Shown in pieces: positions 8,567 to 37,162 of a stretch of 37,639 bases of DNA. Numbering within the stretch: position 1 is the first letter of the stretch; each line of letters begins with the position of its first letter. Origin of the DNA: a virus (taxonomy: Duplodnaviria; Heunggongvirae; Uroviricota; Caudoviricetes). The position numbers were made by a program, and so were the translations under genes. The notes below the pieces were generated by a model. That model had not been told where the DNA came from, searched no databases, and saw only the letters and a list, made by a program, of their open reading frames with translations. The stretch is from positions 1-37,639 of the IMG/VR virus record IMGVR_UViG_2585427795_000009. One strand, 5' to 3'.

Positions 8567-9160
8567 TCAATTATGTAAATCTTTTGTTTTATGTTCTTTA
8601 GCGTATTGTGACAACAAATGGCTATAGCGTTTAAGCAAAATATTAGAAAGATTAAGCTCATTCATGAAGTGTTCTTCTAATAAGTAACCATCAATATCAA
8701 CTTTAATATCATTACCACTTTTCATCTTCTGTAACGTAGATTTTACACGCTCCAGCAGGATGCTTTGCTCATGGTAATAGTCCATAAGAAGAGTAACATC
8801 CTCTTTATCAAGCTTACTTAATTCGCTGAAGTAGGATTTAAACACTTTATCAGTCTGGTTTAATGCAATCTGTAAGCGAGGCCCCCCTAATGATTTGACA
8901 TTAATGGCAAAAGGCTCGCCAACAAAATGCTCCGAATTTTCGTCAAAGCCAATATGTCTCGTTTTATCAAGAAAAGTGAGAGCGCGATGGTTATTAGCGA
9001 TTTCATATGCAAACATTGTTCTGATACTGTCCCTCTCAGCCTCCATGCTTATATCATCACGATGATTTGTATAAAATATATTTCCAACAAAGAGAACCAT
9101 AGCAAGAATCACTGAACTTGCCTCCCAGTTAATATTTTTTAATCGTCGCTTAGTAAACAT
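8567..9160 (-). CDS. Hypothetical membrane-anchored protein, AT-rich cargo gene in the Z/fun slot
   Basis: 197-aa ORF with ATG start and AAGGTG SD 6 nt upstream; one N-terminal hydrophobic helix (SSVILAMVLFVGNIFY); clearly lower GC than flanking G and FI; no recognisable motifs. Confidence 0.6.
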   Translation of the reverse strand: MFTKRRLKNINWEASSVILAMVLFVGNIFYTNHRDDISMEAERDSIRTMFAYEIANNHRALTFLDKTRHIGFDENSEHFVGEPFAINVKSLGGPRLQIALNQTDKVFKSYFSELSKLDKEDVTLLMDYYHEQSILLERVKSTLQKMKSGNDIKVDIDGYLLEEHFMNELNLSNILLKRYSHLLSQYAKEHKTKDLHN

Positions 9161-9912: not shown

Positions 9913-12135
9913 TTACACCTGTGCGACGTTATACCATGTGCCATTGATGTATTTTTGTATTGGTCTGAATACTGCGGGGTCATCACCATCGACTTCACCG
10001 ACAATACCAAGCCCTGTAATTACGTGCCCTGCTTTCTCATACATCACTCCTTTCTGCATGGTCTGAACAACACGAGTGCCCAGGCGAATATCCCGGACAT
10101 AGCGAGAATCTGATTCAGCTTTGGTGTATGCACCAACATCTCCCGCTGATGGTTTTCGTGTTGTGGTATAGAAATCAGACCAGCCAGATTCAAAACCATA
10201 ACCATCACGGGCTGACCTGTAAGATATACCGCCATTTTTATAATTCACACGAAACTGTACAGCCGGGCAGCTACCAGCATTTATATTAAAGTGAAGAATT
10301 AATGCAGATGCTCCCCCAATCAGAGCGTTGTATGCGCCACTGTCCCAATTCCATCCCACGGCTGTATCACCATTAACCGTATTACCTGTCTGCCGAAGTG
10401 CAAATGCACCGACATTTCTGGCATTAAGGGTAATATCTCCAGAACCATCAAAGGCAACACCTGCTATTTTCCTCGGTGTTTCGAGTTTTGAGGCTGTTGC
10501 AGCATTTCCTGAAAGGTTGGAAATAAATGGATGTGAGCAGTAATAACCGCGCCCATTTTTAAAATCCAGAATAGCCTGTGCGTTCGTGCTTTCTGTAGCG
10601 GGATTAGTTGCCCCCCACTTATATGTCGTTTTACCGACGACATAATCCTCTGTCGGAACAATAACCGTTAGCCCTTCCTCTGCAAGAATTTGCACAGGGA
10701 AAGCTCTGGCTTCAACATAAAAAACACTACATACATCATCATCTTTCAGGCTTGTAACAATGGAATGGATTGAACGCTCATTGGTCTGATACGTCCAGAA
10801 ATAACCTGCCGCATATGAACCACGATCGGTCCAGCCTCCGGGCATAACCATGCCATTAAACTCGCAGTTATTCATTACATAATCGCCGTTATAACAACCA
10901 GTTGAAATAACGACGCGGGATGCCATTTCTCCTGAAAGGCTGGCAGCACGGCGAAAGATAACGGGATACCACTTCCCGGCAACGACATTTGCAGGGGCGG
11001 CAAACGAATACTTTCGCATTCCCTTTTTCTTATCCACTTCACCTTTGCTGTAAACATTAATGTTACTCAGGAAGCGTCCTTTATCAGGAATATCCGCACC
11101 GTTCTGATCTTTCTGGAGACGTTTTTCAGCATTGTCATAGGCAGACTTCACCGCTTTTGGTGTTGCAGCCAGCGTTTCAGAATCACTGTTGGTGGCGCTA
11201 CTGAGCTGGACAAGACCTTTTCGCGCTGTGGTGGCATCCTGTGCAGTGTATTTCCCGTTAGCAAGGTCATACGCTGTCTTAACCGCCTTTGGCGTTGCCG
11301 CAAGCGTTTCAGAATCGCTGTTGGTGGCGCTACTGAGCTGGACAAGGCCTTTTCGCGCGGTGGTGGCGTCCTGTGCAGTGTATTTCCCGTTAGCAAGGTC
11401 ATATGCTGCTTTTACCGCTTTTGGTGTTGCGGCGAGCGTTTCAGACGTGCTGTTGGTGGCACTACTGAGCTGGACAAGGCCTTTTCGCGCTGTGGTGGCG
11501 TCCTGTGCAGTGTATTTCCCGTTAGCAAGGTCATATGCTGCTTTTACCGCTTTTGGTGTTGCGGCGAGTGTTTCAGACGTGCTGTTGGTCGCACTGCTTA
11601 ACTGAGTAAAACCTTTGGCGGTCAGCGAGGCGTCCGGGTGACGTCGTGACTGTTCATGTTCTGCAATTTTGTCATCAACGTAATCCTGCGTTGCCATCAC
11701 CGTTGTGGTGTCAATGGTCAGCGCCACTGAGGCCACACTGCTGACGATGATGACCATGCGGCAGGTCTGCGAACGCCCTGAGCCTTCGGCAAGAGCTGGC
11801 TTATAACTTTCAGCCATGTTCGCCACGGCAATTAACGTTCCAGCATCATCGTACAGGCCAAGCTCACGCATCCAGAAACCGCCCACCTCCGGCGGAATAA
11901 CCAGCTCTGCGATAATATAATTACTGTTTCGTTTGTCCTGGCTGATTTTGTTCAGCGCATGTCGCCAGACTTCGTGGATAAGCCCGGTCTGTCCGGCATC
12001 CGGGACAGGCAATTTACCACCGCCATCCCCGACGGCCATCGTGGTAATGTTGACCTTCCGCCCTCCCGGTGCGGTTGCCGCTGCCAGCTTTGCTGCACCG
12101 GCAGTGGTGATAACGGTTTTGAATTTTGTGCTCAT
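9913..12135 (-). CDS. H: Tail fibre protein gpH with four tandem 40-aa fibre repeats
   Basis: 740 aa; N-terminal MSTKFKTVITTAGAAKLAAATAPGG typical of P2 H; internal repeats KGLVQLSSATNS(T/D)SETLAATPKAVKAAYDLANGKYTAQDATTAR x4. Confidence 0.88.
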   Translation of the reverse strand: MSTKFKTVITTAGAAKLAAATAPGGRKVNITTMAVGDGGGKLPVPDAGQTGLIHEVWRHALNKISQDKRNSNYIIAELVIPPEVGGFWMRELGLYDDAGTLIAVANMAESYKPALAEGSGRSQTCRMVIIVSSVASVALTIDTTTVMATQDYVDDKIAEHEQSRRHPDASLTAKGFTQLSSATNSTSETLAATPKAVKAAYDLANGKYTAQDATTARKGLVQLSSATNSTSETLAATPKAVKAAYDLANGKYTAQDATTARKGLVQLSSATNSDSETLAATPKAVKTAYDLANGKYTAQDATTARKGLVQLSSATNSDSETLAATPKAVKSAYDNAEKRLQKDQNGADIPDKGRFLSNINVYSKGEVDKKKGMRKYSFAAPANVVAGKWYPVIFRRAASLSGEMASRVVISTGCYNGDYVMNNCEFNGMVMPGGWTDRGSYAAGYFWTYQTNERSIHSIVTSLKDDDVCSVFYVEARAFPVQILAEEGLTVIVPTEDYVVGKTTYKWGATNPATESTNAQAILDFKNGRGYYCSHPFISNLSGNAATASKLETPRKIAGVAFDGSGDITLNARNVGAFALRQTGNTVNGDTAVGWNWDSGAYNALIGGASALILHFNINAGSCPAVQFRVNYKNGGISYRSARDGYGFESGWSDFYTTTRKPSAGDVGAYTKAESDSRYVRDIRLGTRVVQTMQKGVMYEKAGHVITGLGIVGEVDGDDPAVFRPIQKYINGTWYNVAQV
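11110..11640. repeat. About 4.3 tandem copies of a 120-bp unit inside H (coding fibre repeats)
   Basis: Near-identical 120-bp units visible directly in the DNA; they give identical peptides in three frames of the ORF track. Confidence 0.85.
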
Positions 12136-18794: not shown

Positions 18795-19532
18795 TTAACT
18801 GGCTTTCTTTTTCGGGCGTCCACGTTTTGCCGGTGTCGCACTCCGGGTCTTACGCGGGGCGCGGGTGACCGCTTTTGGCTCCGGCTTCGGTTTCAGCTCC
18901 CGCTCCAGTCGTTCAATCTCTTTTTTGACGCCTGCCTGACAGTCGAGCTGTGTCGCACGTTGCAGGTGTGCCAGCGCACCTGCGGCATCACCACCGTCAC
19001 GCAGAAACAGACCGGTGATTTTGTGCAGCTTTGCGCGCACTTCATCAGGCATGTCAGCCGTGGCGGTCAGTTCAAGGGTGTCCGTCAGCAGGCGGGTATC
19101 CACAGACTCACCGGCAGCGTGAGCGCGCATGGCCGCGAGCGCCACCTCCTCGGTGAACATGTACGGCGGGGTACGGCGGTGTTTACCCGGCATGGTCAGA
19201 CCGTACTTCAGGGCATAACGGGCAATCTCCAGCGCACCGGCAATATCGCCGGTATCCAGACGCCACAGCATGACTGTCATCAGAATGTCATCCTGTGCGC
19301 CTTTGCCCTGCTCCAGCACGCCGTTCACCCACGGCAACCAGAACGGCAGCAGTTCGCGTTTTTTCGCAGCCTTCAGCTCTTTTGAATAAATCGCTTTCAG
19401 TGTGCGCTGGTCTGCGGCGAGCTTAACCAGCATCTGCTCATAGACAGTTGCATGTCGCAGCGGGGCGGCTTCCCGCTGCGCGGTCATCGCTGCCGAGACC
19501 CGCATCATGTGGCGCTGTGCGGGACTCGTCAT
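18795..19532 (-). CDS. M: Terminase small (endonuclease) subunit gpM
   Basis: 245 aa, basic C-terminus, synteny N-M-L. Confidence 0.85.
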   Translation of the reverse strand: MTSPAQRHMMRVSAAMTAQREAAPLRHATVYEQMLVKLAADQRTLKAIYSKELKAAKKRELLPFWLPWVNGVLEQGKGAQDDILMTVMLWRLDTGDIAGALEIARYALKYGLTMPGKHRRTPPYMFTEEVALAAMRAHAAGESVDTRLLTDTLELTATADMPDEVRAKLHKITGLFLRDGGDAAGALAHLQRATQLDCQAGVKKEIERLERELKPKPEPKAVTRAPRKTRSATPAKRGRPKKKAS

Positions 19533-21695: not shown

Positions 21696-23468
21696 ATGAC
21701 CATCACCACAGACACCACTCTTTTACACGACCCGCGTCGTCAGGCGGCGCTGCTGTACTGGCAGGGGTTTTCCGTGCCGCAGATTGCCGCCATGTTGCAG
21801 ATGAAACGCCCGACGGTGCAGAGCTGGAAACAGCGCGACGGCTGGGACAGCGTTGCCCCCATCAGCCGTGTCGAAATGAGTCTGGAAGCGCGGCTGACCC
21901 AGCTCATCATCAAACCGCAGAAAACCGGCGGTGACTTCAAGGAAATTGACCTGCTCGGACGCCAGATTGAACGACTGGCACGGGTCAACCGTTACAGTCA
22001 GACCGGCAACGAGGCAGACCTTAATCCGAACGTCGCTAACCGCAACAAAGGCGGGCGTCGCAAACCGAAAAAGAATTTTTTCAGTGACGAGGCCATCGAA
22101 AAGCTGGAGCAGATTTTCTTTGAGCAGTCTTTCGAATATCAGTTGCACTGGTATCGCGCCGGGCTTGAGCACCGCATCCGCGATATCCTGAAATCCCGCC
22201 AGATTGGCGCGACGTTTTATTTTTCCCGCGAGGCGCTGCTGCGCGCCCTGAAAACCGGTCATAACCAGATTTTTCTGTCGGCCAGTAAAACGCAGGCGTA
22301 TGTGTTCCGCGAATACATCATCGCCTTTGCCCGGCTGGTTGACGTTGACCTGACCGGTGACCCGATTGTCCTGGGCAATAACGGCGCAAAACTGATTTTT
22401 CTCGGCACCAACTCCAACACCGCGCAGAGCCATAACGGCGACCTGTACGTCGATGAGATTTTCTGGATCCCGAATTTTCAGGTACTGCGTAAGGTGGCAT
22501 CAGGTATGGCCTCACAGAGTCACCTGCGCTCGACCTATTTCTCCACCCCGTCCACGCTGGCGCACGACGCCTACCCGTTCTGGTCGGGTGAACTGTTCAA
22601 CCGGGGACGCGCCAGCGCCGCCGAACGTGTGGAAATCGACGTCAGTCATAACGCCCTTGCCGGTGGTCTTCTCTGTGCGGACGGCCAGTGGCGGCAGATT
22701 GTCACCATTGAGGACGCGCTGAAAGGCGGCTGCACGCTGTTCGACATTGAACAGCTCAAACGCGAAAACAGCGCCGATGATTTTAAAAATCTGTTCATGT
22801 GTGAATTTGTTGACGACAAGGCGTCGGTGTTCCCGTTCGAGGAGCTGCAACGCTGCATGGTCGACACGCTGGAAGAATGGGAAGACTATGCCCCCTTTGC
22901 TGCCAATCCGTTCGGCTCCCGTCCGGTATGGATTGGTTACGACCCGTCACACCGTGGCGACAGCGCCGGATGCGTGGTGCTGGCACCGCCGGTGGTGGCC
23001 GGTGGCAAATTCAGAATACTTGAGCGTCATCAGTGGAAAGGCATGGACTTTGCCACTCAGGCTGAATCCATCCGCAAACTCACCGAAAAATACAACGTCG
23101 AATACATCGGAATTGATGCCACCGGCCTCGGTGTCGGCGTGTTCCAGCTCGTGCGCTCGTTCTATCCCGCCGCGCGCGACATCCGCTACACGCCGGAAAT
23201 GAAAACCGCAATGGTGCTCAAGGCCAAAGACGTTATCCGCCGTGGCTGTCTGGAATATGACGTCAGCGCCACCGACATCACCAGCTCGTTTATGGCTATC
23301 CGCAAGACCATGACCAGCAGCGGACGCAGCGCCACCTATGAGGCCAGCCGCAGCGAGGAAGCCAGCCACGCCGACCTCGCCTGGGCGACCATGCACGCCC
23401 TGTTAAATGAGCCACTCACCGCCGGTATCAGCACCCCGCTGACATCCACCATTCTGGAGTTTTACTGA
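21696..23468 (+). CDS. P: Terminase large (ATPase) subunit gpP
   Basis: 590 aa from ATG 21696 (MTITTDTTLLHDPRRQ...); divergent from O; stop overlaps Q start (TGATG). Confidence 0.9.
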   Translation: MTITTDTTLLHDPRRQAALLYWQGFSVPQIAAMLQMKRPTVQSWKQRDGWDSVAPISRVEMSLEARLTQLIIKPQKTGGDFKEIDLLGRQIERLARVNRYSQTGNEADLNPNVANRNKGGRRKPKKNFFSDEAIEKLEQIFFEQSFEYQLHWYRAGLEHRIRDILKSRQIGATFYFSREALLRALKTGHNQIFLSASKTQAYVFREYIIAFARLVDVDLTGDPIVLGNNGAKLIFLGTNSNTAQSHNGDLYVDEIFWIPNFQVLRKVASGMASQSHLRSTYFSTPSTLAHDAYPFWSGELFNRGRASAAERVEIDVSHNALAGGLLCADGQWRQIVTIEDALKGGCTLFDIEQLKRENSADDFKNLFMCEFVDDKASVFPFEELQRCMVDTLEEWEDYAPFAANPFGSRPVWIGYDPSHRGDSAGCVVLAPPVVAGGKFRILERHQWKGMDFATQAESIRKLTEKYNVEYIGIDATGLGVGVFQLVRSFYPAARDIRYTPEMKTAMVLKAKDVIRRGCLEYDVSATDITSSFMAIRKTMTSSGRSATYEASRSEEASHADLAWATMHALLNEPLTAGISTPLTSTILEFY

Positions 23469-24487
23469 TGAGCAAGAAAAAAGGGAAAACACCGCGACCT
23501 GCGGCAAAAACAATCACCGCCAGCGCCCCGAAAATGGAAGCATTCACCTTTGGCGAGCCGGTGCCGGTACTCGACCGCCGTGACATTCTGGATTACGTTG
23601 AGTGCATCAGTAACGGCAGATGGTATGAGCCACCGGTCAGCTTTACCGGTCTGGCAAAAAGCCTGCGTGCTGCCGTGCATCACAGCTCCCCGATTTACGT
23701 CAAACGCAATATTCTGGCCTCGACATTTATCCCGCATCCGTGGCTTTCCCAGCAGGATTTCAGCCGCTTTGTGCTGGATTTTCTGGTGTTCGGTAATGCG
23801 TTTCTGGAAAAGCGTTACAGCACCACCGGTAAGGTCATCAGACTGGAAACCTCACCGGCAAAATATCCCCGCCGTGGCGTGGAAGAGGATGTTTACTGGT
23901 GGGTGCCGTCCTTCCATGAGCCGACACCTTTCGCGCCCGGCTCCGTGTTTCACCTGCTGGAGCCGGATATTAATCAGGAGCTGTACGGTCTGCCGGAATA
24001 TCTCAGCGCCCTTAACTCTGCCTGGCTGAATGAATCAGCCACGCTGTTCCGCCGCAAGTATTACGAAAACGGCGCTCATGCCGGATACATCATGTATGTC
24101 ACCGATGCCGTGCAGGATCGCAACGATATCGAAATGCTTCGCGAAAACATGGTTAAGTCGAAAGGCCGCAACAACTTTAAAAACCTGTTTCTCTATGCCC
24201 CACAGGGGAAAGCCGACGGCATTAAAATTATCCCCCTCAGTGAAGTGGCGACGAAGGACGATTTTTTTAATATCAAAAAAGTCAGCGCCGCAGATCTCCT
24301 GGACGCACACCGCATCCCCTTTCAGTTGATGGGCGGTAAGCCGGAGAATGTCGGGTCACTAGGAGATATTGAGAAAGTGGCAAAGGTCTTTGTCCGCAAT
24401 GAACTCATTCCATTACAGGAGAGAATAAAGTCAATAAATGAATGGTTAGATATGGAAGTCATAAAATTCCTTGATTATAACTTATAA
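23468..24487 (+). CDS. Q: Portal protein gpQ
   Basis: 339 aa, synteny P-Q next to the cos region; last 25 or so codons are AT-rich. Confidence 0.88.
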   Translation: MSKKKGKTPRPAAKTITASAPKMEAFTFGEPVPVLDRRDILDYVECISNGRWYEPPVSFTGLAKSLRAAVHHSSPIYVKRNILASTFIPHPWLSQQDFSRFVLDFLVFGNAFLEKRYSTTGKVIRLETSPAKYPRRGVEEDVYWWVPSFHEPTPFAPGSVFHLLEPDINQELYGLPEYLSALNSAWLNESATLFRRKYYENGAHAGYIMYVTDAVQDRNDIEMLRENMVKSKGRNNFKNLFLYAPQGKADGIKIIPLSEVATKDDFFNIKKVSAADLLDAHRIPFQLMGGKPENVGSLGDIEKVAKVFVRNELIPLQERIKSINEWLDMEVIKFLDYNL

Positions 24488-24729
24488 GTAAATATATAAA
24501 GTTGGCGGAATGCAATCCCGCCAACTTAACTATATATGCGTATTTTCATGAAAGGAGATCACTCAATAACTTCCATCGAGATCGGGTAATAACATTTGAA
24601 CAGATCGCTGAATAACATCGATGGAGATCACTTTTGACTCATTTTGTTATTCAGTGATCTCCATCAATGTTATTGGAACTTCACAGGTGTGTTGATCTGT
24701 ATCTTTTGCCATTCCGGTAAAGGATACCT

Positions 24730-26271
24730 ATGCCAACAGTTCCAATTTCTATGAGAAAACTTAAAGAAATTCTTAGGCTTAAATACGGTGTTGGACTCAG
24801 CCATCGACAAATTGGTCGTAGTCTTGCAATCTCCCCTTCCGTTGTATCCAGATATGCTAATCGGGCGGCTCAACTTGGCATAAAGCAGTGGCCCTTACCT
24901 ACAGGATGGGATGATACAAAACTAAAACATGCGTTCCTTCAGACCCAGGTTAAGATGAAGAAGCACTCTCTGCCTGACTGGGCTACAGTACACCGGGAAC
25001 TGCGTAATAAATGCGTGACGCTGCAGCTACTCTGGGAAGAATACTGTGAGCGTAATCCAGGCGGTTTTTACAGCTATAACCATTACTGCCGGATGTACCG
25101 TGAATGGCTCAAAACCACTTCACCATCAATGCGTCAGGTACATAAAGCTGGCGAAAAACTTTTCGTTGATTACTGTGGACCTACCGTTGGCGTTACCGAC
25201 CCTGAGACCGGAGAAATAAGAACTGCTCAGGTCATCGTAGCTGTTCTCGGGGCATCAAGTTACACATGGGCAGAGGCCACCTGGTCTCAGCAGCTTGAAG
25301 ACTGGGTGATGAGTCATGTTCGCTGCTTCCAGTGGTTGGGTGGCGTTCCTGAACTTGTTGTTCCGGACAATCTGAAAAGCGCCACATCCAGGGCATGTAA
25401 GTATGATCCTGACGTTAACCCTACCTACCAGCAGATGCTTGAGCATTATAATGTCGCAGTTTTGCCTGCGCGGCCACGTAAACCGAAAGATAAAGCCAAA
25501 GCTGAAGTTGGCGTTCAGGTTGTTGAACGCTGGATCATGGCCCGAATCAGGCATGAGATCTTCTACAGCCTTGCATCGCTTAATCAGCGCATTCGGGAGT
25601 TGCTGGAAAGACTGAATAACAAAATAATGCAGAAGTTGGGTTATTCACGTGCAGAACTCTTCATCCAGCTTGATAAACCCGCACTGAAGCCTCTTCCTGA
25701 AGCCAGTTACAGTTACACCCTGGTGAAGAAAGTCAGAGTTCATGCCGATTACCACGTGGAAATCGACAAACATTACTACTCGGTTCCATGTTCGCTGTTA
25801 GGCCAGCAACTGGAAGCATGGATCTCCGGAGAACTGGTAAGACTCTTCAATCAGGGGCAGGAGGTTGCTGTGCACCCGCGCAAGCGTACTTATGGCTACA
25901 GTACCCGCAACGAGCACATGCCTGAAGCTCATCGACAGCATGCCACCTGGACGCCAGAGCGTCTTCTGGAATGGGCGGGGCACATAGGCAGTGAAACTCA
26001 TAGTTATGTGCTTCATATACTGAACTCTCGTCCACATCCGGAACAAAGCTATCGCTTCTGCCTTGGACTCCTGAACCTTCATAAAAAATACAGTAAAGCC
26101 AGACTTAATGCAGCATGTGCAAGAGCTCTGAAAACAAAGGTATGGCGTCTGTCAGGTATTAAATCGATCCTGGAAAAAGGTCTGGATAAACAACCTGTTC
26201 AGGATCCAAAACCAGATCTGTTATCCACGATGGAACACGAAAACGTACGCGGCAGTGAGTATTACCACTGA
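24730..26271 (+). CDS. istA: IS21-family transposase IstA
   Basis: 513 aa; N-terminal HTH (LSHRQIGRSLAISPSVVSRY), DDE-type core, SD AAAGGA upstream. Confidence 0.9.
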   Translation: MPTVPISMRKLKEILRLKYGVGLSHRQIGRSLAISPSVVSRYANRAAQLGIKQWPLPTGWDDTKLKHAFLQTQVKMKKHSLPDWATVHRELRNKCVTLQLLWEEYCERNPGGFYSYNHYCRMYREWLKTTSPSMRQVHKAGEKLFVDYCGPTVGVTDPETGEIRTAQVIVAVLGASSYTWAEATWSQQLEDWVMSHVRCFQWLGGVPELVVPDNLKSATSRACKYDPDVNPTYQQMLEHYNVAVLPARPRKPKDKAKAEVGVQVVERWIMARIRHEIFYSLASLNQRIRELLERLNNKIMQKLGYSRAELFIQLDKPALKPLPEASYSYTLVKKVRVHADYHVEIDKHYYSVPCSLLGQQLEAWISGELVRLFNQGQEVAVHPRKRTYGYSTRNEHMPEAHRQHATWTPERLLEWAGHIGSETHSYVLHILNSRPHPEQSYRFCLGLLNLHKKYSKARLNAACARALKTKVWRLSGIKSILEKGLDKQPVQDPKPDLLSTMEHENVRGSEYYH

Positions 26272-26282
26272 TACGGGATCCA

Positions 26283-27032
26283 ATGATGAATCATCTTTAC
26301 GAACAACTGACCGCACTTAAACTCACCGGCTTCCGTGATGCGCTTAAAAAGCAACTTGCTCAGCCGGGCACATACCAGGAGCTGGGCTTCGAAGAACGCC
26401 TGTCATTACTGACAGCAGAAGAACTAACCTGCCGTGAAAACAGGAAGGCAGAGCGTCTGATCAAACATGCACGGTTCAGACTTAATGCTGAGTTATCAAA
26501 GCTGGATTATCGTAACAATAGAGGGCTGGACAGGGCCCTCATCCGTTCACTCAGTCAGGGAAACTGGTTAACCCTGAAACAAAATATTTTACTGACCGGG
26601 GCCACCGGCAGCGGTAAAACGTTCCTGGCATGTGCACTTGGTCATAATGCCTGCCGACAGGGATACAAGGTCTACTATTATCGCCTTAAAGCGCTGATGG
26701 AACAGTGCTATCAGGGGCATGCTGATGGAAGATACAGCAAACTTTTGACCAGGCTGAATAATAGCGATCTGCTGCTTCTGGATGACTGGGGGCTGGAACC
26801 TCTCTCATCAGAACAGCGTAGCGACCTGCTGGAAATAGTGGATCTGATGTACCAACGAGGCTCAATCATCGTAGTGAGCCAGTTGCCGGTGGAAAACTGG
26901 TACAAAATGATCGGAGACTCCACACATGCGGATGCCATCCTAGATCGACTGGTTCATGGCAGTATCAAGATCGAACTTAAAGGAGAATCAATGCGGAAAA
27001 TACAATCTCCGTTGACCGAAGGAGATCAGTGA
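26283..27032 (+). CDS. istB: IS21-family ATP-binding helper IstB
   Basis: 249 aa; Walker A (LLTGATGSGKTF) and Walker B (LLLLDDWG); AAA+ IstB pattern. Confidence 0.9.
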   Translation: MMNHLYEQLTALKLTGFRDALKKQLAQPGTYQELGFEERLSLLTAEELTCRENRKAERLIKHARFRLNAELSKLDYRNNRGLDRALIRSLSQGNWLTLKQNILLTGATGSGKTFLACALGHNACRQGYKVYYYRLKALMEQCYQGHADGRYSKLLTRLNNSDLLLLDDWGLEPLSSEQRSDLLEIVDLMYQRGSIIVVSQLPVENWYKMIGDSTHADAILDRLVHGSIKIELKGESMRKIQSPLTEGDQ

Positions 27033-27118
27033 AGGTAATTTAAAAACGGTTCTGTGAAAGTGACACGAACCGATCTCCATCGATGTTACTCACCGATCTC
27101 CTTCACGGTAATACGCAA

Positions 27119-27826
27119 CTATATATACTTCCTTTTTACTCTACTTAATTCTATCACTGATGAGGAGTGACAAAATGACAAATTAATAGTATCGATATAA
27201 TCCAAAATTTGACTCTCAACCTCAATAAAAATATTTTTGGGCCCATTACTAATCGATATACCGATTTCATCCAAAACAGCCATCATTTTTCTCTGATGAG
27301 TTTTATATTTATAGTCTTTATTTTCCTCTGTAATATGTGCATTGGCTTCCTCAATAACACATTTGATTCTAGATATTATTTCTAGATAATCTCTCGAAAC
27401 AGATATATCACCGCCTTGCGCTTCAGGGAACATAACCCTATACCATCTAAAAAAATTAACTTTCTCTGGATAGATGCTACTTCTTTTAGTTAACTCAGCA
27501 CTTGCAAATTCTCTAAACATCGTCAGATGACTAGTGTAATTACTATTATTATTATTTTTAACTCCAGCGTTATATGTCATCAAAGCAATCATAACACCAA
27601 AAACGGTAACAAAAGTTGTTATAAGCCATCCAAACGCCTGAAAATACATTACTATACCAGATGTTTTTTCCGCAAAAAATTTTAAGCACTGGCTATCGAA
27701 GCATATATCACGCTCATATAGCTTTTCATTCTGAATAGTTTCAAAAAGAGAAATTAGCGAAAAAATCAAAAAAAGAGCTGACGACACACCGACAATATAT
27801 TTGAGAAGTCTAATATTTGCATTCAT
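27119..27826 (-). CDS. 2-TM membrane protein, candidate effector translationally coupled to the upstream reverse transcriptase
   Basis: 235 aa; two N-terminal TM helices (LLKYIVGVSSALFLIFSLISLF and GIVMYFQAFGWLITTFVTVFGVMIALM) then a roughly 150-aa soluble domain; its ATG overlaps the RT stop (ATGA); AT-rich. Confidence 0.7.
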   Translation of the reverse strand: MNANIRLLKYIVGVSSALFLIFSLISLFETIQNEKLYERDICFDSQCLKFFAEKTSGIVMYFQAFGWLITTFVTVFGVMIALMTYNAGVKNNNNSNYTSHLTMFREFASAELTKRSSIYPEKVNFFRWYRVMFPEAQGGDISVSRDYLEIISRIKCVIEEANAHITEENKDYKYKTHQRKMMAVLDEIGISISNGPKNIFIEVESQILDYIDTINLSFCHSSSVIELSRVKRKYI

Positions 27827-29049
27827 AATGGTTTTAAAGATGCCAATCTAGATTTAAAACACTCCAGTTTTTCTTTAAATGATTCAGAGCGAGTAAGAAT
27901 AATCATCTTATATCTCGTCAAATCATATTTTCTTTTATACCAATGTTTATTTTGATTACCTTTCGAATACGACAACTCTAAACTTTTTATAGCTGCATCA
28001 ATCACAGCAACATCTCTTTTAGATGGCATCGGTTTTATTGCCTGCAACTGTTTCTTGAATGATTCATATTTTTCATGCCCAACACGGCCAAGCTTATTCA
28101 CTCTCCCCATACATCTATTGAATTCTTTTCTGTATGCAACACTTGTTTTTGTGTTATTTTTTGCCGCCAGTAATTTCAAATTATGTATAGATGCCCTGAT
28201 TCTTTTGACTTCATCGGATGGTAGTCGAGGTGAGTCATAGTCAACTCTTAAACCATGTACTTTTATAGGTTCAGATGAACAGTGAAATATTTTAGTTTTG
28301 TGCTTATTTATCGGCAAGTCATGCTCAGAAAGCATCCTCTCTATATGGCTTTGCATTTGAGAAAAATCATAATTACTTATTTTAGATGACACGGTAATAT
28401 CATCTACCAAACGCGTATAAACAAGTCCTTTCCTCTGCGCACGTCTTACCACATCCCCTTCAACAGCGAATAAACACAAAGTTGCTATATAGCTTGATGT
28501 TAAGGCCCCCTGTACGACAAAATCATCCTTAGTACATATATCCACCAAGTATTCAAGAGCCTCATCCTTAATATGCAATATCTCCTCAAACACGCTCCTA
28601 ACCAGATCTCTATGGATATTATCGAAAAAATTACTTATATCCACCTTGAGAACTGTTTTTGCTCCACAATGAGCCTTTGCACATGAAACATAGTCACGTT
28701 TGACATTAGAATTTAAAACATCATTTTTACTGGGAACTGAACCAAACAAAAATGAAGGAAAAACAACCAATTCCTTAAAGATACGTTTATTAATTCTACT
28801 CTGTAATAATCTCATTTTAGGATGCAGGGAGTAGACAATCCGTTTGCTTCCGTCAATTTTGGGAATTTCTTTTAGAGTATATTTCTCATCTAATGGTAAT
28901 TCTGCAATAGCTTTAAGCTCTTCAACAGAAATCGATAAAGCCTTTGACAACTTTTCAAGTGTTGTGATAGGAGCATTGGATTTGCTGTATGGTTTAAATT
29001 TATCCATAAACATACCATTCAAATTCAAAGTTACGTACGGTCTTCCCAT
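27823..29049 (-). CDS. Retron-type reverse transcriptase (start uncertain: ATG at 29049, 29013 or 29007)
   Basis: RT motifs read directly: KRIVYSLHPKMRLLQSRI (motif 1-2), CAKAH-x5-VLKVDISNFFDNI (NAxxH-like plus motif A), QGALTSSYIATL (motif B), YTRLVDDITVS (motif C, YxDD), LPINKHKTKIF (motif E), IKVHGL in the position of the retron VTG motif; about 130-aa C-terminal extension. Confidence 0.82.
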   Translation of the reverse strand: MGRPYVTLNLNGMFMDKFKPYSKSNAPITTLEKLSKALSISVEELKAIAELPLDEKYTLKEIPKIDGSKRIVYSLHPKMRLLQSRINKRIFKELVVFPSFLFGSVPSKNDVLNSNVKRDYVSCAKAHCGAKTVLKVDISNFFDNIHRDLVRSVFEEILHIKDEALEYLVDICTKDDFVVQGALTSSYIATLCLFAVEGDVVRRAQRKGLVYTRLVDDITVSSKISNYDFSQMQSHIERMLSEHDLPINKHKTKIFHCSSEPIKVHGLRVDYDSPRLPSDEVKRIRASIHNLKLLAAKNNTKTSVAYRKEFNRCMGRVNKLGRVGHEKYESFKKQLQAIKPMPSKRDVAVIDAAIKSLELSYSKGNQNKHWYKRKYDLTRYKMIILTRSESFKEKLECFKSRLASLKPL

Positions 29050-29265
29050 ACTCAAGGGTGGAACAGCAGAGATGCTTACATCAACAATTGTCAGCAACAG
29101 CCTCTGCTATCTTTCGACCGTACGTAATGTCGTCGGCTACGGCACCATCGTAGTTGACGACGGTGGGGCCTCGCTGATAGGTCCATAGTGGACGCTTTTT
29201 TGTAAAAGCAAAAACTGACAATTTAATGTTGTTGACTGCCGCATACCAAGCGAATCGCTGGTGCG
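29050..29265 (-). ncRNA. Candidate structured leader or ncRNA upstream of the retron-type RT (possible msr-msd-like element)
   Basis: Non-coding leader with several perfect hairpins (GTCCA-TAG-TGGAC 29181..29193; GCTTTT-N4-AAAAGC 29194..29209; CACCATCG-N7-CGACGGTG 29143..29165) and two interleaved long-range inverted repeats (29031..29040 with 29118..29127, 10 bp; 29081..29094 with 29215..29236). Sequence-only inference. Confidence 0.3.
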
Positions 29266-29271
29266 CTAAGA

Positions 29272-29300
29272 ATAATGCAACAAAAAAATAAGAATTTCAA
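29272..29300 (-). promoter_or_regulatory. Putative sigma-70 promoter for the RT/2-TM operon
   Basis: On the minus strand: TTGAAA (-35), 17-nt spacer, CATTAT (-10); about 215-250 nt upstream of the RT start. Confidence 0.3.
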
Positions 29301-29338
29301 CCGGGTAACTGCAAGCCAGCGACATCGTTTAGCGCGCA

Positions 29339-29357
29339 GTGCTTTCCCCGCCTCGCC
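29339..29357. other. cos site (19-nt cohesive-end sequence of P2/P4 type)
   Basis: Minus-strand sequence GGCGAGGCGGGGAAAGCAC matches the P2 cohesive end as I recall it; flanked at 29357..29380 by hairpin CCGCCC-N8-GGGCGG plus TTTT. Confidence 0.75.
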
Positions 29358-29546
29358 CGCCCGCTTAATGGGGCGGTTTTAATGCACTTGCATTATGTCC
29401 CGCTCCTCAGTGCTGCGCTCCATCCTGATTACAAAAACCGTTATCAAAAACACATGCAAATAGACGCAGTCAAATGCACTACCGCCTCTCGCAATACCTT
29501 CAATTTCATGATAAAAAACATCATCCCTAACAAGAGCATTATCCTC

Positions 29547-31094
29547 ATGAAAAAAGTATATGAACTAACCAGTGAAGAAGCACTGTCATATTTTCTTCGC
29601 CATGACTCCTACACAACCTTAGAATTACCGGCTTATATTAATTTCACCACATTATTAAATGATATTAATTCATCTATCCATAACAAAAAAATTAAAATTG
29701 AACCAACCGCCAAGGAGCTGATGGGTAAAGATATCAATTATGAGGTGCTTGTCAGTAAAGATGGTCTATATAGCTGGCGTAGGATAACACTTATCAATCC
29801 CCTTTATTATGTCTACTTCTGTAGAAAAATCACAGCACCAACAACCTGGGAAATCATAACAGAAAAATTCAAATCTTTTGAATCAAACGACCTTTTTACA
29901 TGTTCAAGCATCCCCGTCAGAAAAGACAACTCGTCAAACATTGCTGCGTCTGTAATGAATTGGTGGGAAGATTTTGAACAAAAAAGCCTTGCCCTTGCTC
30001 TTGAATACGAATTCATGTTCAGCACTGACATCTCAAACTTCTACCCATCAATATATACTCATAGTTTTGAATGGGTATTCATATCAAAAGAAGATGCAAA
30101 GAAGAAAAAAAACAAAAATAACCCAGGGGGATTAATTGACAGCCACATTCAAATGATGATGAACAACCAGACAAATGGTATTCCACTCGGCAGCACATTG
30201 ATGGATACATTTGCTGAGCTTATCTTGGGTCAAATCGATATAGAATTAAGAAAAAAAACTAACGAACTCAAAATAATAAACTACAAGGTAGTACGCTACC
30301 GTGATGATTACCGGATCTTCTCTAATAGCAAAGATGATTTAGACATAATATCAAAATGTTTAGTCAATGTGTTGGGCGATTTTGGTTTAGATCTAAACTC
30401 AAAAAAAACTGAACTATATGAAGACATCATACTTCATTCGTTGAAACAAGCCAAAAAAGACTACATCAAAGAAAAAAGACATAAGTCACTCCAGAAAATG
30501 CTCTATTCAATATATTTATTTTCACTTAAACATCCAAACTCGAAAACAACCGTTAGATATCTAAATGATTTTCTTAGGGATTTATTTAAGCGAAAGTCAA
30601 TTAAAGATAACGGCCAACAGGTTGATGCTATGCTTGGTATTATTTCAAGCATCATGGCAAAAAACCCTACAACGTACCCAGTAGGAACGGCAATTTTCTC
30701 AAAACTCCTCAGTTTTCTTTATGGTGATGACACCCAAAAAAAATTAACAAAACTAGAACAGCTCCATAAAAAACTGGATAAACAACCCAATACAGAAATG
30801 CTTGACATATGGTTTCAGCGAACTCAAGCAAAAATAAACCTAGAGTGGAATAAATCTTATAAGTCAGCTCTATGCGTCCGTATAAATGATGAACTCACAA
30901 AAGAGAAAACATTTTCTGTAAATAATTTATGGAATATTGACTGGATCCAAGGAAAAGAAACGAGCCCCAATAAAGCCAAGATATTATCCTTGCTAAGAAA
31001 AACAAAAATCGTTGACACAGATAAATTTGATAAAATGGATGACAATATAACACCTGAAGAAGTTAATCTATTCTTTAAAGAGCACAGCAATTAA
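29547..31094 (+). CDS. AbiK/Abi-P2-like (UG/Abi class) reverse transcriptase in the old/tin position (start uncertain; longest ATG is at 29382)
   Basis: Motifs STDISNFYPSIYTHS (compare AbiK LDLSNFYHTLYTHS), GIPLGSTLMDTFAELIL (motif B), VVRYRDDYRIF (motif C), GLDLNSKKTEL (motif E), then a roughly 250-aa helical C-terminal domain; AT-rich; the 29382..29546 extension overlaps the cos-flanking region and is probably not coding. Confidence 0.8.
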   Translation: MKKVYELTSEEALSYFLRHDSYTTLELPAYINFTTLLNDINSSIHNKKIKIEPTAKELMGKDINYEVLVSKDGLYSWRRITLINPLYYVYFCRKITAPTTWEIITEKFKSFESNDLFTCSSIPVRKDNSSNIAASVMNWWEDFEQKSLALALEYEFMFSTDISNFYPSIYTHSFEWVFISKEDAKKKKNKNNPGGLIDSHIQMMMNNQTNGIPLGSTLMDTFAELILGQIDIELRKKTNELKIINYKVVRYRDDYRIFSNSKDDLDIISKCLVNVLGDFGLDLNSKKTELYEDIILHSLKQAKKDYIKEKRHKSLQKMLYSIYLFSLKHPNSKTTVRYLNDFLRDLFKRKSIKDNGQQVDAMLGIISSIMAKNPTTYPVGTAIFSKLLSFLYGDDTQKKLTKLEQLHKKLDKQPNTEMLDIWFQRTQAKINLEWNKSYKSALCVRINDELTKEKTFSVNNLWNIDWIQGKETSPNKAKILSLLRKTKIVDTDKFDKMDDNITPEEVNLFFKEHSN

Positions 31095-31100
31095 TATCCC

Positions 31101-31134
31101 AAAGCCATGTTAGTAACATAACATGGCTTTTTTT
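31101..31134. terminator. Bidirectional rho-independent terminator between the convergent Abi-like RT and A
   Basis: Perfect 12-bp stem (AAAGCCATGTTA / TAACATGGCTTT) with 6-nt loop, followed by TTTT on the plus strand. Confidence 0.6.
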
Positions 31135-31198
31135 AAATCACTCATTATCAGTTATCAAGAACGAACATAACATTCTATTCCGAGGAGTTAAATTATCA

Positions 31199-33484
31199 TT
31201 AGCTCCACTTAATATCCGTTATATCCTCCAGCCACTCCTCATCTACAAGATAGGTGAATTTTTTCCCGTCATAATTTACGGTTGCTCCACGTGCCAGCGC
31301 CTCAAGCTCCCATCGCTGCGGCCTGATACCGTTCTGAGCGAGGTCAACGCGGATACGGGTAATTTGCATTCGTTCTGACCGGGTCAGTCTGGCCGATGGC
31401 GCTATTTCATGTGGTTTTAACGGGCTTCCGTTTCTCTGCTGACGACCAGTCGTTCTCAGGCCGTGTTTTAATGCTCCCCTGAGCGCCTTCACGACCTCCG
31501 GGTCATTCCATTCGATAACACCGTCATCAACCAGATTAAGCACTGCTGCGGCGTGCTCAGAAGGTGTGGGAGCTGGTAACGAAGCATCACCACTGGTGAG
31601 CTTTCCACAGTTATTGACAGGACTCCGAGGCGCGGCGATGCCGCTTTTTAAAGTCAAAGGCTCAACGACCGGAACTTTCGGCACAATGCGCCAGTCCGTC
31701 GTTCTGGTGATATGAATATGACGCGCGCCGAGATGCGGCGCGTAAATGCCGACCACTCTCTCGACTTCTTCCTCGTATTCGTTGACGTCATCCGACGGAC
31801 TACGGGCAACCCTGACAATCTGACTATCGCGCGGGACATTTGCCCCGCCCTGCGCGCTGATATACAGCGCAAAATCACCACTGTCTGCGGCGGCGCGTGC
31901 AGCCTCGACGCGCTCGTCAAACTCATCAGCAATGCTGACGCCGCGCGGCAATTTGCGTAGTTCACGGTAAGCCCCCATTGTCGGCAGACCAACCGTTTTA
32001 AATTGCGGGATGCGCCACGTTGACGCCCATGCGGTAACAGCCGCGGCAGTGTCTTTCAGCGGTCTGCCGGTATCATTATCGAGCTGACCATCCAGTGCAT
32101 ATCCGTCGATATTTTTTGAGATGTACTTCGCGATATACCCCGCAGCACCGCCCCGGTTAAGGTGTTTCGCCTGAAAACGGTTTCGCGCGGCTCCTCTTTC
32201 GTCGCCATCCTCTTTGAGCGCGTAGCGACGCATGATTTCAATAATCTGGTTACGCTGGCGTGGATTACAAAAAAGCATCATATGCCAGTGCGGCGTTCCG
32301 TCGTGGTGTGGCTCGACGACACGCAAACCGTAGACCTGTAAATCATTATCCTTGAATGCCGTGCGCATCAGGCTCCAGATGCGGCAGAGATAACGCTGCG
32401 CATCCTTTGGATTAAATGCCTCATCGTTCCAGCCGTGATTAAGCTGAACGGTTTTACTTTCGCCTTTTCTGACCTGACGAGTCGGGTGATACTTTGACGG
32501 CGCAGTCAGCGTGATAAACATCCCCACATCACCCTCTGCGGCGGCGTAACGCTCAATACCGGCAATGGTGTTCATCAGCTCCATCCGGCGAATTTCAGGA
32601 TTAGAAATACTGCCCATCACCTTACTGATAAGGTCGATGCGCTCGCCGGTTTCCCTGTTTTCAAGGTCACACGATTTAAGAAATTCCAGATTTGCCTGGC
32701 GGCGCGCACGCACATCACGAATGGCGTGTTTACTGGCATAAGGAGAACGGTCTTTATTGACCTCCCCGACAGCTATCAGTAACGCTTCATGCCAGCGCAT
32801 ACGCTGGCCTTTAAGCTGATGAGTCCACCACTCATCGTTAAACAGACGGGCAATGGCAGAATATGCCTGCCTCGTGGTTATCTGTCCTTTACGGTATTTT
32901 TTCCAGTAGAGCGGGGAAATATTGAAAGCTCGTGCAGCGCCAGCAACATGACCATACAGGTGAGCCTGAGCCTCATCCGTAAACAGTGATTCTTTTTCGC
33001 CATGCGCATCCACCCAGGCATCGCTGAGTTCCTCATACATCATGAAAAGCTGCGATGAGATACGGGCAGCAAACTTTTTCAGCTCCTTGTCATTCATTCC
33101 CGGCAGGCGCGCATAGTGGTCACGCTCTGCCAGAAACAGCAACGACGCGTCGGTGTTCATTTCATGGCGCTGATTCACACGCTCAATGCGCGGCCATAAA
33201 CGACGCTGAAAAGTGGATGTGAGGAAATAAAACCCGTGTACCGGGCTTTTATTGCGCCGGATGTAGTCATAGCGTGAAGTAAACAGCGAGCGCAAAAAGT
33301 AAGGCAGGCGGTTAATCGTGGATAAAACACCTTGCACCTGACGCATCTCGTCACGTGTAAGGGGTCTTTCGCGCCCGACGGCCTCGCGTGGCGCGTTCCA
33401 TGCATAAGCACCGGTAAACGTCTCACCGGTGCCTGCGGCAAATGCTGACGGAGGGACAAAATGCACGGAGGCTTTAACGGCCAT
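31199..33484 (-). CDS. A: Replication initiation protein gpA (rolling-circle nickase)
   Basis: 761 aa from ATG 33484 (MAVKASVHFVPP...); the ORF track start at 33526 is a TTG extension; size and synteny match P2 A. Confidence 0.9.
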   Translation of the reverse strand: MAVKASVHFVPPSAFAAGTGETFTGAYAWNAPREAVGRERPLTRDEMRQVQGVLSTINRLPYFLRSLFTSRYDYIRRNKSPVHGFYFLTSTFQRRLWPRIERVNQRHEMNTDASLLFLAERDHYARLPGMNDKELKKFAARISSQLFMMYEELSDAWVDAHGEKESLFTDEAQAHLYGHVAGAARAFNISPLYWKKYRKGQITTRQAYSAIARLFNDEWWTHQLKGQRMRWHEALLIAVGEVNKDRSPYASKHAIRDVRARRQANLEFLKSCDLENRETGERIDLISKVMGSISNPEIRRMELMNTIAGIERYAAAEGDVGMFITLTAPSKYHPTRQVRKGESKTVQLNHGWNDEAFNPKDAQRYLCRIWSLMRTAFKDNDLQVYGLRVVEPHHDGTPHWHMMLFCNPRQRNQIIEIMRRYALKEDGDERGAARNRFQAKHLNRGGAAGYIAKYISKNIDGYALDGQLDNDTGRPLKDTAAAVTAWASTWRIPQFKTVGLPTMGAYRELRKLPRGVSIADEFDERVEAARAAADSGDFALYISAQGGANVPRDSQIVRVARSPSDDVNEYEEEVERVVGIYAPHLGARHIHITRTTDWRIVPKVPVVEPLTLKSGIAAPRSPVNNCGKLTSGDASLPAPTPSEHAAAVLNLVDDGVIEWNDPEVVKALRGALKHGLRTTGRQQRNGSPLKPHEIAPSARLTRSERMQITRIRVDLAQNGIRPQRWELEALARGATVNYDGKKFTYLVDEEWLEDITDIKWS

Positions 33485-37135: not shown

Positions 37136-37162
37136 AATCTCCCTTACACGGGCTTATTTTTT
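37136..37162. repeat. Prophage att core, right copy (int-proximal)
   Basis: Identical 27-mer to 1507..1533. Confidence 0.85.

Follow-up and report, generated by a model that had tools for sequence, protein, structure and literature searches.

The cos core of phage P2 is given as 55 bp by Ziermann & Calendar 1990, as cited in PMC5694545, and the latter source names the position between cosL and gpQ as a hotspot. Retrons are found here: Ec86 and Ec67 replace approximately 180 bp between cos and the packaging-gene terminator (Dodd & Egan 1996, as relayed in PMC6868368 and PMC5694545). More widely, the interval between gpA and gpQ is a defence hotspot that adjoins cos (PMC9122126, Rousset et al. 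2022; PMC13586616). On the gpA side, the passage of PMC9508834 that cites Odegrip 2006 places the reverse transcriptase (RT) AbiP2 in the variable region of P2. On the portal side, the retron of interest is type IV, whose founding member is Ec48/Retron-Eco6 (PMC7736814), and AbiP2, Q and gpA have been noted alongside Ec48 (PMC8934634, Sharifi & Ye 2022). The cos core, retrons at cos, AbiP2 at the variable locus, the gpQ-gpA hotspot and the Ec48/AbiP2 neighbourhood are all already published, and repeatedly so since 1996.

The stretch of DNA analysed here, which is 37,639 bp long and is referred to as the window, holds a prophage that is very close to P2 and runs in the reverse orientation of the P2 map. 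Positions 29339-29357, together with their flanks, are very probably a functional-looking cos site of a close P2 relative, located in a gpQ-gpA variable region with two cargo slots. A preliminary description of the window had noticed that cos lies between two divergently transcribed RT genes, a retron-type RT/2TM operon on one side and an Abi-type RT on the other, and this is borne out. What it missed is that the arrangement is that of a documented hotspot and no peculiarity of this locus. For annotation, the value of the analysis is that it fixes the cos site, the start of AbiP2, the retron promoter and ncRNA, and the boundaries of the insertion sequence (IS) in the prophage.

The prophage and its cos site

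The prophage is delimited by a perfect direct repeat, and the genes that matter for the cos region are as follows.

1507-1533 and 37136-37162, no strand: att core, 27 bp, perfect direct repeat flanked by ogr and int; unit length 35,629 bp
18798-19532, minus strand: small terminase gpM, full length, 93% amino acid identity to P2 M
21696-23468, plus strand: large terminase gpP, full length, 99.8% amino acid identity to P2 P
23468-24487, plus strand: portal protein gpQ, Pfam Phage_portal, 95% amino acid identity to P2 Q
31202-33484, minus strand: replication protein gpA, boundary of the hotspot, Pfam Phage_GPA, 95.5% amino acid identity to P2 A

Protein comparison with P2 shows that all essential P2 proteins are present at full length and 93-100% identity, including both terminase subunits, the portal and gpA, and that the C repressor is identical to that of P2. 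Four accessory genes of P2 are unmatched in the window: fun(Z), orf91, tin and old. Between the portal gene and gpA lies the cos site.

29331-29393, no strand: conserved cos core, approximately 63 bp, made up of a portal side of about 8 bp (AGCGCGCA), the 19-mer and a gpA side of about 36 bp (CGCCCGCTTnnnGGGGCGGTTTTAATGCAnnTGCA)
29339-29357, minus strand: 19-nt cohesive-end sequence (cosN equivalent), GGCGAGGCGGGGAAAGCAC, exact single match, equal to bases 1-19 of P2 and P4
29357-29380, plus strand: GC hairpin CCGCCC-N8-GGGCGG followed by TTTT, inside the cos core; 6-bp all-GC stem, terminator-like score

The preliminary description had reported an exact match to the P2/P4 cohesive end on the minus strand, and direct comparison confirms it. 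A scan of the window finds GGCGAGGCGGGGAAAGCAC once, at 29339-29357, with 0 mismatches, while dinucleotide-preserving shuffles of the window yield 0.01 matches even when 3 mismatches are tolerated. The sequence is identical at 19/19 positions to bases 1-19 of P2 (NC_001895, where they are annotated as cosL) and of P4 (NC_001609), and phage 186 differs from it at 2 positions. The flanks are intact as well: the conserved core is present on both sides and matches P2 and P4 base for base except at a few loop positions, where the window has a variant, CTTAAT, that is absent from the other loci compared. The likeness to P2 and P4 thus extends from the 19-nt cohesive end to the flanking core, which includes the GC inverted repeat and TTTTAATGCA, and to the position of the site between gpQ and the accessory genes on the gpA side.

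The extent of the core was defined by two comparisons. In a sensitive search of 50,697 phage records, 29331-29393 is, two special cases apart, the sole segment common to the window and 84 P2-like records, and this 63-bp block is 88-97% identical to P2-like phage records. In addition, 80 P2-like loci were gathered around the portal gene and anchored on the 19-mer, with cos being detectable in 79; in these 79 the 19-mer lies between Q and A in the same orientation, and the core is the sole segment common to loci that carry differing cargo on either side. The approximately 63-bp segment corresponds to the published 55-bp cos core (PMC5694545).

Cleavage at 29339-29357 by the terminase of the strain carrying the window is expected by analogy. 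The P2 terminase, whose subunits gpM and gpP are both intact in the window, is established to recognise the approximately 55-63-bp core in P2 and would do the same here, nicking the two strands 19 nt apart and leaving a linear genome that has 5' cohesive ends. As the substrates of this terminase are monomeric circles, both flanks of cos would be present at recognition.

The retron cassette on the portal side

In P2, only about 170 bp separate cos from Q, whereas in the window a 2.2-kb retron cassette and an IS are found there. The P2 spacer is thereby replaced, and with it the tQ terminator and the final codons of Q. The elements of the cassette, listed from the portal side towards cos, are:

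24499-24527, no strand: bidirectional terminator hairpin between the portal gene and the retron effector, 13-bp stem
27119-27826, minus strand: retron effector with two transmembrane helices, PADLOC 2TM_IV, E=4e-85
27823-29013, minus strand: retron reverse transcriptase, type IV (Ec48/Eco6 type), 396 aa (408 aa from 29049), PADLOC RT_IV, Pfam RVT_1
29031-29265, minus strand: retron ncRNA (putative msr-msd), between the RT and cos, from inverted repeats
29031-29042 and 29116-29128, minus strand: ncRNA long hairpin, built on a perfect 12-nt repeat (29031-29042 and 29116-29127)
29129-29161, minus strand: ncRNA stem, from inverted repeats
29215-29235 and 29081-29094, minus strand: ncRNA a1 and a2 repeats, from inverted repeats
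29246-29261, minus strand: ncRNA 5' hairpin, from inverted repeats
29272-29300, minus strand: predicted retron promoter TTGAAA-17-CATTAT from a consensus scan, with a predicted transcription start near 29265

The closest described retron is Ec48/Retron-Eco6 (Millman et al. 2020; Mestre et al. 2020 for type IV), and the window retron matches the RT_IV and 2TM_IV profiles at full length. For the RT (ORF 27823-29097) the match has E=7.6e-177 and covers profile positions 2-385 of 386. Counted from a start that lies 12 codons further upstream than the one favoured by the profile, the catalytic DD occupies residues 216/217, which fits the Ec48 numbering. The RT and effector genes overlap by 4 nt, and the RefSeq name of the effector, ‘retron Ec48 family effector membrane protein’, is that of the same family. 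Unlike Ec86 and Ec67, which belong to 186-related prophages, this retron is of type IV and Ec48-like, with a 2TM effector, and resides on a P2-type backbone.

The preliminary description had placed the promoter of the RT operon within 100 bp of cos. The predicted promoter (29300-29272) is 39-67 bp from the 19-mer and directs transcription away from cos. It aligns with the TTGACA-16/17-TAnnnT of three diverged type IV retrons (L094, L098 and L095), in which the promoter lies 7-11 nt upstream of a conserved 5' hairpin. The proximity of a predicted promoter to cos is therefore supported by comparison with diverged retrons.

The ncRNA region folds more stably than its controls (z = -3.85). In five marine gammaproteobacterial retrons (L094-L098), whose RTs are only 43-49% identical, the sequences are unrelated, yet each helix recurs at an unchanged distance from the RT start. 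These helices were detected sequence by sequence; column-wise covariation counts on a MAFFT alignment are weak owing to register slips. An Rfam scan of 24400-31300 at E<=1 returned no retron or other RNA family, and a search of a collection of papers for the ncRNA sequence gave no match.

In the leaders of type IV retrons, the 3' strand of the a1/a2 helix lies within the apical loop of the conserved long hairpin. In the window, this hairpin pairs 29031-29042 with 29116-29128 and also 29063-29071 with 29102-29110, the inner hairpin spanning 48 nt. Both sets of helices recur with different sequences in the five diverged retrons. Given the placement of the 3' strand, the two sets would be either pseudoknotted or alternative conformations.

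At the other end of the cassette, the portal gene stops 5 codons before the end of P2 Q, and a different hairpin stands in place of the P2 tQ terminator. The cassette therefore came with a terminator of its own and took the place of the 3' end of Q. In the mechanism proposed for the portal-side slot, a complete type IV retron cassette (promoter, ncRNA, RT, 2TM effector and terminator) would have replaced the spacer of P2.

ISEc12 and the size of the prophage

The open reading frames between the portal gene and the retron do not form a defence system: they are istA and istB of an insertion sequence.

24537-27117, plus strand: ISEc12 (IS21 family), Pfam rve and IstB_IS21, RefSeq names, at least 99.7% identity to annotated ISEc12 copies
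24730-26271 and 26283-27032, plus strand: istA (DDE transposase) and istB (ATPase) of ISEc12
24529-24536 and 27118-27125, no strand: 8-bp target duplication ACTATATA, from comparison with the empty site

The ends of ISEc12 were set by comparison with the empty site in NZ_CP049845, which is free of the IS and has an otherwise 100% identical locus. The terminal inverted repeats TG...CA are present. The element inserted directly beside the bidirectional terminator at 24499-24527 and left all genes intact; the stop codon of the retron effector falls inside the target duplication and has been kept. Insertion of the IS between Q and the retron would have come later than the cassette and lengthened the genome, to which it adds 2,589 bp. 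The prophage measures 35,629 bp, compared with 33,048 bp for the IS-free version and 33,593 bp for P2, or 106% of P2 length.

This size bears on whether the prophage can still be packaged. Because it is 106% of P2 length, packaging of the IS-bearing copy is not assured and is regarded as uncertain, as it may exceed the capacity of the capsid. Among the matches listed, no P2-like phage record is larger than about 34.1 kb, except for one 45-kb record. The IS is absent from this site in all 5,426 complete E. coli genomes, which suggests a recent event. One reading is then that cos is a relic in a prophage that is no longer packageable, so that the picture of two cargoes at opposite ends of the virion DNA fails for the copy in the window. 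This is unlikely: none of the essential genes of the prophage is disrupted, the cos core is intact, as are the two att cores, the IS-free version is 33,048 bp, and the same retron arrangement has been deposited as phage pro147.

Several copies of ISEc12 are found near cos in P2-like and P4-like elements, and targeting of cos or of the cos hairpin by the IS was considered. It was rejected, as the sites are scattered and the duplications unrelated. Three such copies (L010 3803-6383, L011 2511-5091 and L012 2703-5283) lie, respectively, inside AbiP2, which is truncated, inside the scaffold gene gpO and approximately 170 bp from a P4-like cos.

AbiP2 on the gpA side and the cos hairpin

On the other side of cos, the cargo is AbiP2.

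29547-31094, plus strand: AbiP2 reverse transcriptase (P2-EC30 orf570 allele), 515 aa from the conserved start, PADLOC AbiP2, Pfam RVT_1

This gene occupies the same place as P2-EC30 orf570 or Abi-P2 (Odegrip et al. 2006; PMC9508834 for the structure): it lies between cos and gpA, in the interval that holds old and tin in P2. At the nucleotide level it shares 98.9% identity with P2-EC30 (AM157365). Ec48 has the P2-EC58 allele of AbiP2 across cos, whereas the window has the P2-EC30 allele. The PADLOC match has E=2e-161 and covers profile positions 4-487 of 489, aligned from residue 56 of the ORF.

The longest ORF of this RT begins at an ATG at 29382, as the preliminary description had said, but this is not the start of AbiP2. 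The ATG at 29382 is that of the conserved TTTTAATGCA, which occurs in P2, P4 and 186 whatever gene lies downstream. In the other AbiP2 allele, which is found in pro147 and many genomes and has approximately 75% amino acid identity, similarity starts exactly at MKK(V/I)YELT, and upstream of this motif the in-frame sequence is unrelated and has stop codons. As the allele comparison, the PADLOC profile and RefSeq, which places the start at 29547, all agree, AbiP2 starts at 29547, which is 190 bp away from the 19-mer. The number in ‘orf570’ is reckoned from the ATG within the cos core, 55 codons ahead of the start of the conserved protein.

AbiP2 is transcribed away from cos, as are old and tin in P2, for which the P2 record maps mRNA starts 150-170 bp from the right end. 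A consensus scan of 29394-29546 found no convincing sigma-70 promoter for AbiP2.

The GC hairpin lies between the 19-mer and this gene. The preliminary description had treated it as an element that follows cos; it is present at 29357-29380, but it is not separate and instead belongs to the conserved cos core. On the plus strand it scores like an intrinsic terminator, with its all-GC stem followed by TTTT, and could be read as primarily a transcription terminator that shields AbiP2 from rightward (late or IS) transcription and not as a packaging element. This reading is quite doubtful. The hairpin is found in P2, P4 and 186 whatever lies downstream (kept in P2 and P4, with its register shifted in 186), it is inside the published cos core, and P2 has its own annotated tQ terminator elsewhere. 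In addition, its fold energy does not differ from that of shuffled controls (z = -0.7), and it is broken in at least one prophage (L067). The hairpin is better read as part of the cos core, while a dual role as packaging element and terminator is still conceivable. Apparent covariation in the hairpin (G/A with C/T) was dropped, as the most stable register puts the variable positions in the loop and the folding is no better than that of shuffles.

Two slots parted by the cos core

The gpA-gpQ hotspot of P2-like phages has variable anti-phage cargo at cos and often more than one system per locus, as is the case here. Whereas PMC9122126 and PMC13586616 treat the region as one hotspot, the comparison presented here splits it into two slots that are parted by the 63-bp core.

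On the portal side, cos lies about 188 bp past the portal stop, as in P2, in 72 of the 79 P2-like loci, while the remaining 7 carry 1.9-2.3 kb of cargo, always oriented from cos to Q. In 4 of these 7 the cargo is the same retron; the others have PD-T4-4, an NsnA/GmrSD-like pair and a PDC-S02-like pair. The intervals concerned are L020 6610-8384 (the PDC-S02-like pair), L052 8327-10004 (the NsnA/GmrSD-like gene, beside a partner of unknown family) and L073 2395-4393 (PD-T4-4). On the gpA side, the same retron cassette is paired with four different cargoes (two AbiP2 alleles, PDC-S28 and PDC-S39), and AbiP2 is also found without the retron. These combinations indicate that each side is a slot independent of the other, with the cos core as the join. 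Escherichia phage pro147 (KR073660) is a deposited example: it has the same retron cassette beside cos at 98.8% identity and AbiP2 across cos, but is without ISEc12 and carries the other AbiP2 allele (~75% amino acid identity).

Loci with unrelated portal-side cargo have only about 8 bp in common beyond the 19-mer. This suggests that on the portal side P2 packaging requires very little sequence. Such a small requirement would be useful in the design of P2/P4-based transducing vectors.

The two slots would relate to the virion DNA as follows. The portal-side slot holds the retron and the gpA-side slot, where P2 has old and tin, holds AbiP2. In the linear molecule, the retron operon would then be approximately 40 bp inside the left end and AbiP2 approximately 190 bp inside the right end, each unit being whole on its own end. 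Annealing of the ends after injection would restore the divergent arrangement and make the retron and AbiP2 neighbours in the circle and in the prophage. As both units are transcribed away from cos, no transcript need cross the cleavage site. The presence of RT domains in both cargoes would reflect the usual content of the hotspot together with tight linkage, and no property of cos.

A P2-type phage is not known to inhibit RecBCD, so a retron that guards RecBCD would be a compatible cargo for it. The Old protein of P2 behaves similarly to such a retron.

Pairing of the retron with AbiP2

The frequency of the arrangement was counted in 5,426 complete E. coli genomes, of which 2,135 have the cos core, at 2,906 places. 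The retron cassette is found in 57, always at full length and at least 99% identical, whereas AbiP2 is represented by 10 intact copies of the EC30 allele and by the other (P2-EC58-type) allele in 64 genomes. An intact retron-cos-AbiP2 junction is present in 42 genomes with the P2-EC58-type allele and in 3 with the EC30 allele. AbiP2 is therefore directly across cos in 45 of the 57 retron carriers, compared with approximately 1.5 expected under independence over the 2,906 cos sites. This figure is a quantitative addition to known facts, and physical linkage probably explains it. As the units are less than 100 bp apart and the copies near-identical, the simplest account is that they are linked within a successful lineage of phages.

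The excess over expectation, and the occurrence of two AbiP2 alleles with ~75% amino acid identity beside the same retron, might instead point to a co-selected pair of RT-based abortive-infection systems that work better together, with the position astride cos keeping them joined or allowing expression from the genome ends right after injection; this is improbable, since at less than 100 bp the two should be strongly linked and spread clonally with one phage lineage, every copy has at least 99% identity, the EC30-allele pairing seems to be that of one lineage, AbiP2 is missing from 12 retron carriers and the retron from approximately 29 AbiP2 carriers, and each system defends when assayed alone (PMC9508834 among the sources). 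Equally speculative is the fuller version, in which selection would keep an Ec48-type retron and AbiP2 together across cos as a defence pair of two RTs whose triggers complement each other or act in synergy, in a phage that does not itself inhibit RecBCD, and in which the 63-bp core would act as a recombination pivot for swapping halves. The pairing statistic is a cheap lead on synergy, with linkage as the default explanation.

Other features of the prophage

Two further regions depart from P2. Between the tail-fibre and sheath genes, where fun(Z) lies in P2, the window has a 197-aa ORF (8567-9160, minus strand) without a Pfam match. The tail-fibre gene H (9913-12135) matches P2 in its first 251 residues only, and at 11128-11616 it contains three 225-nt direct repeats with a spacing of 132 nt, so that the copies overlap.
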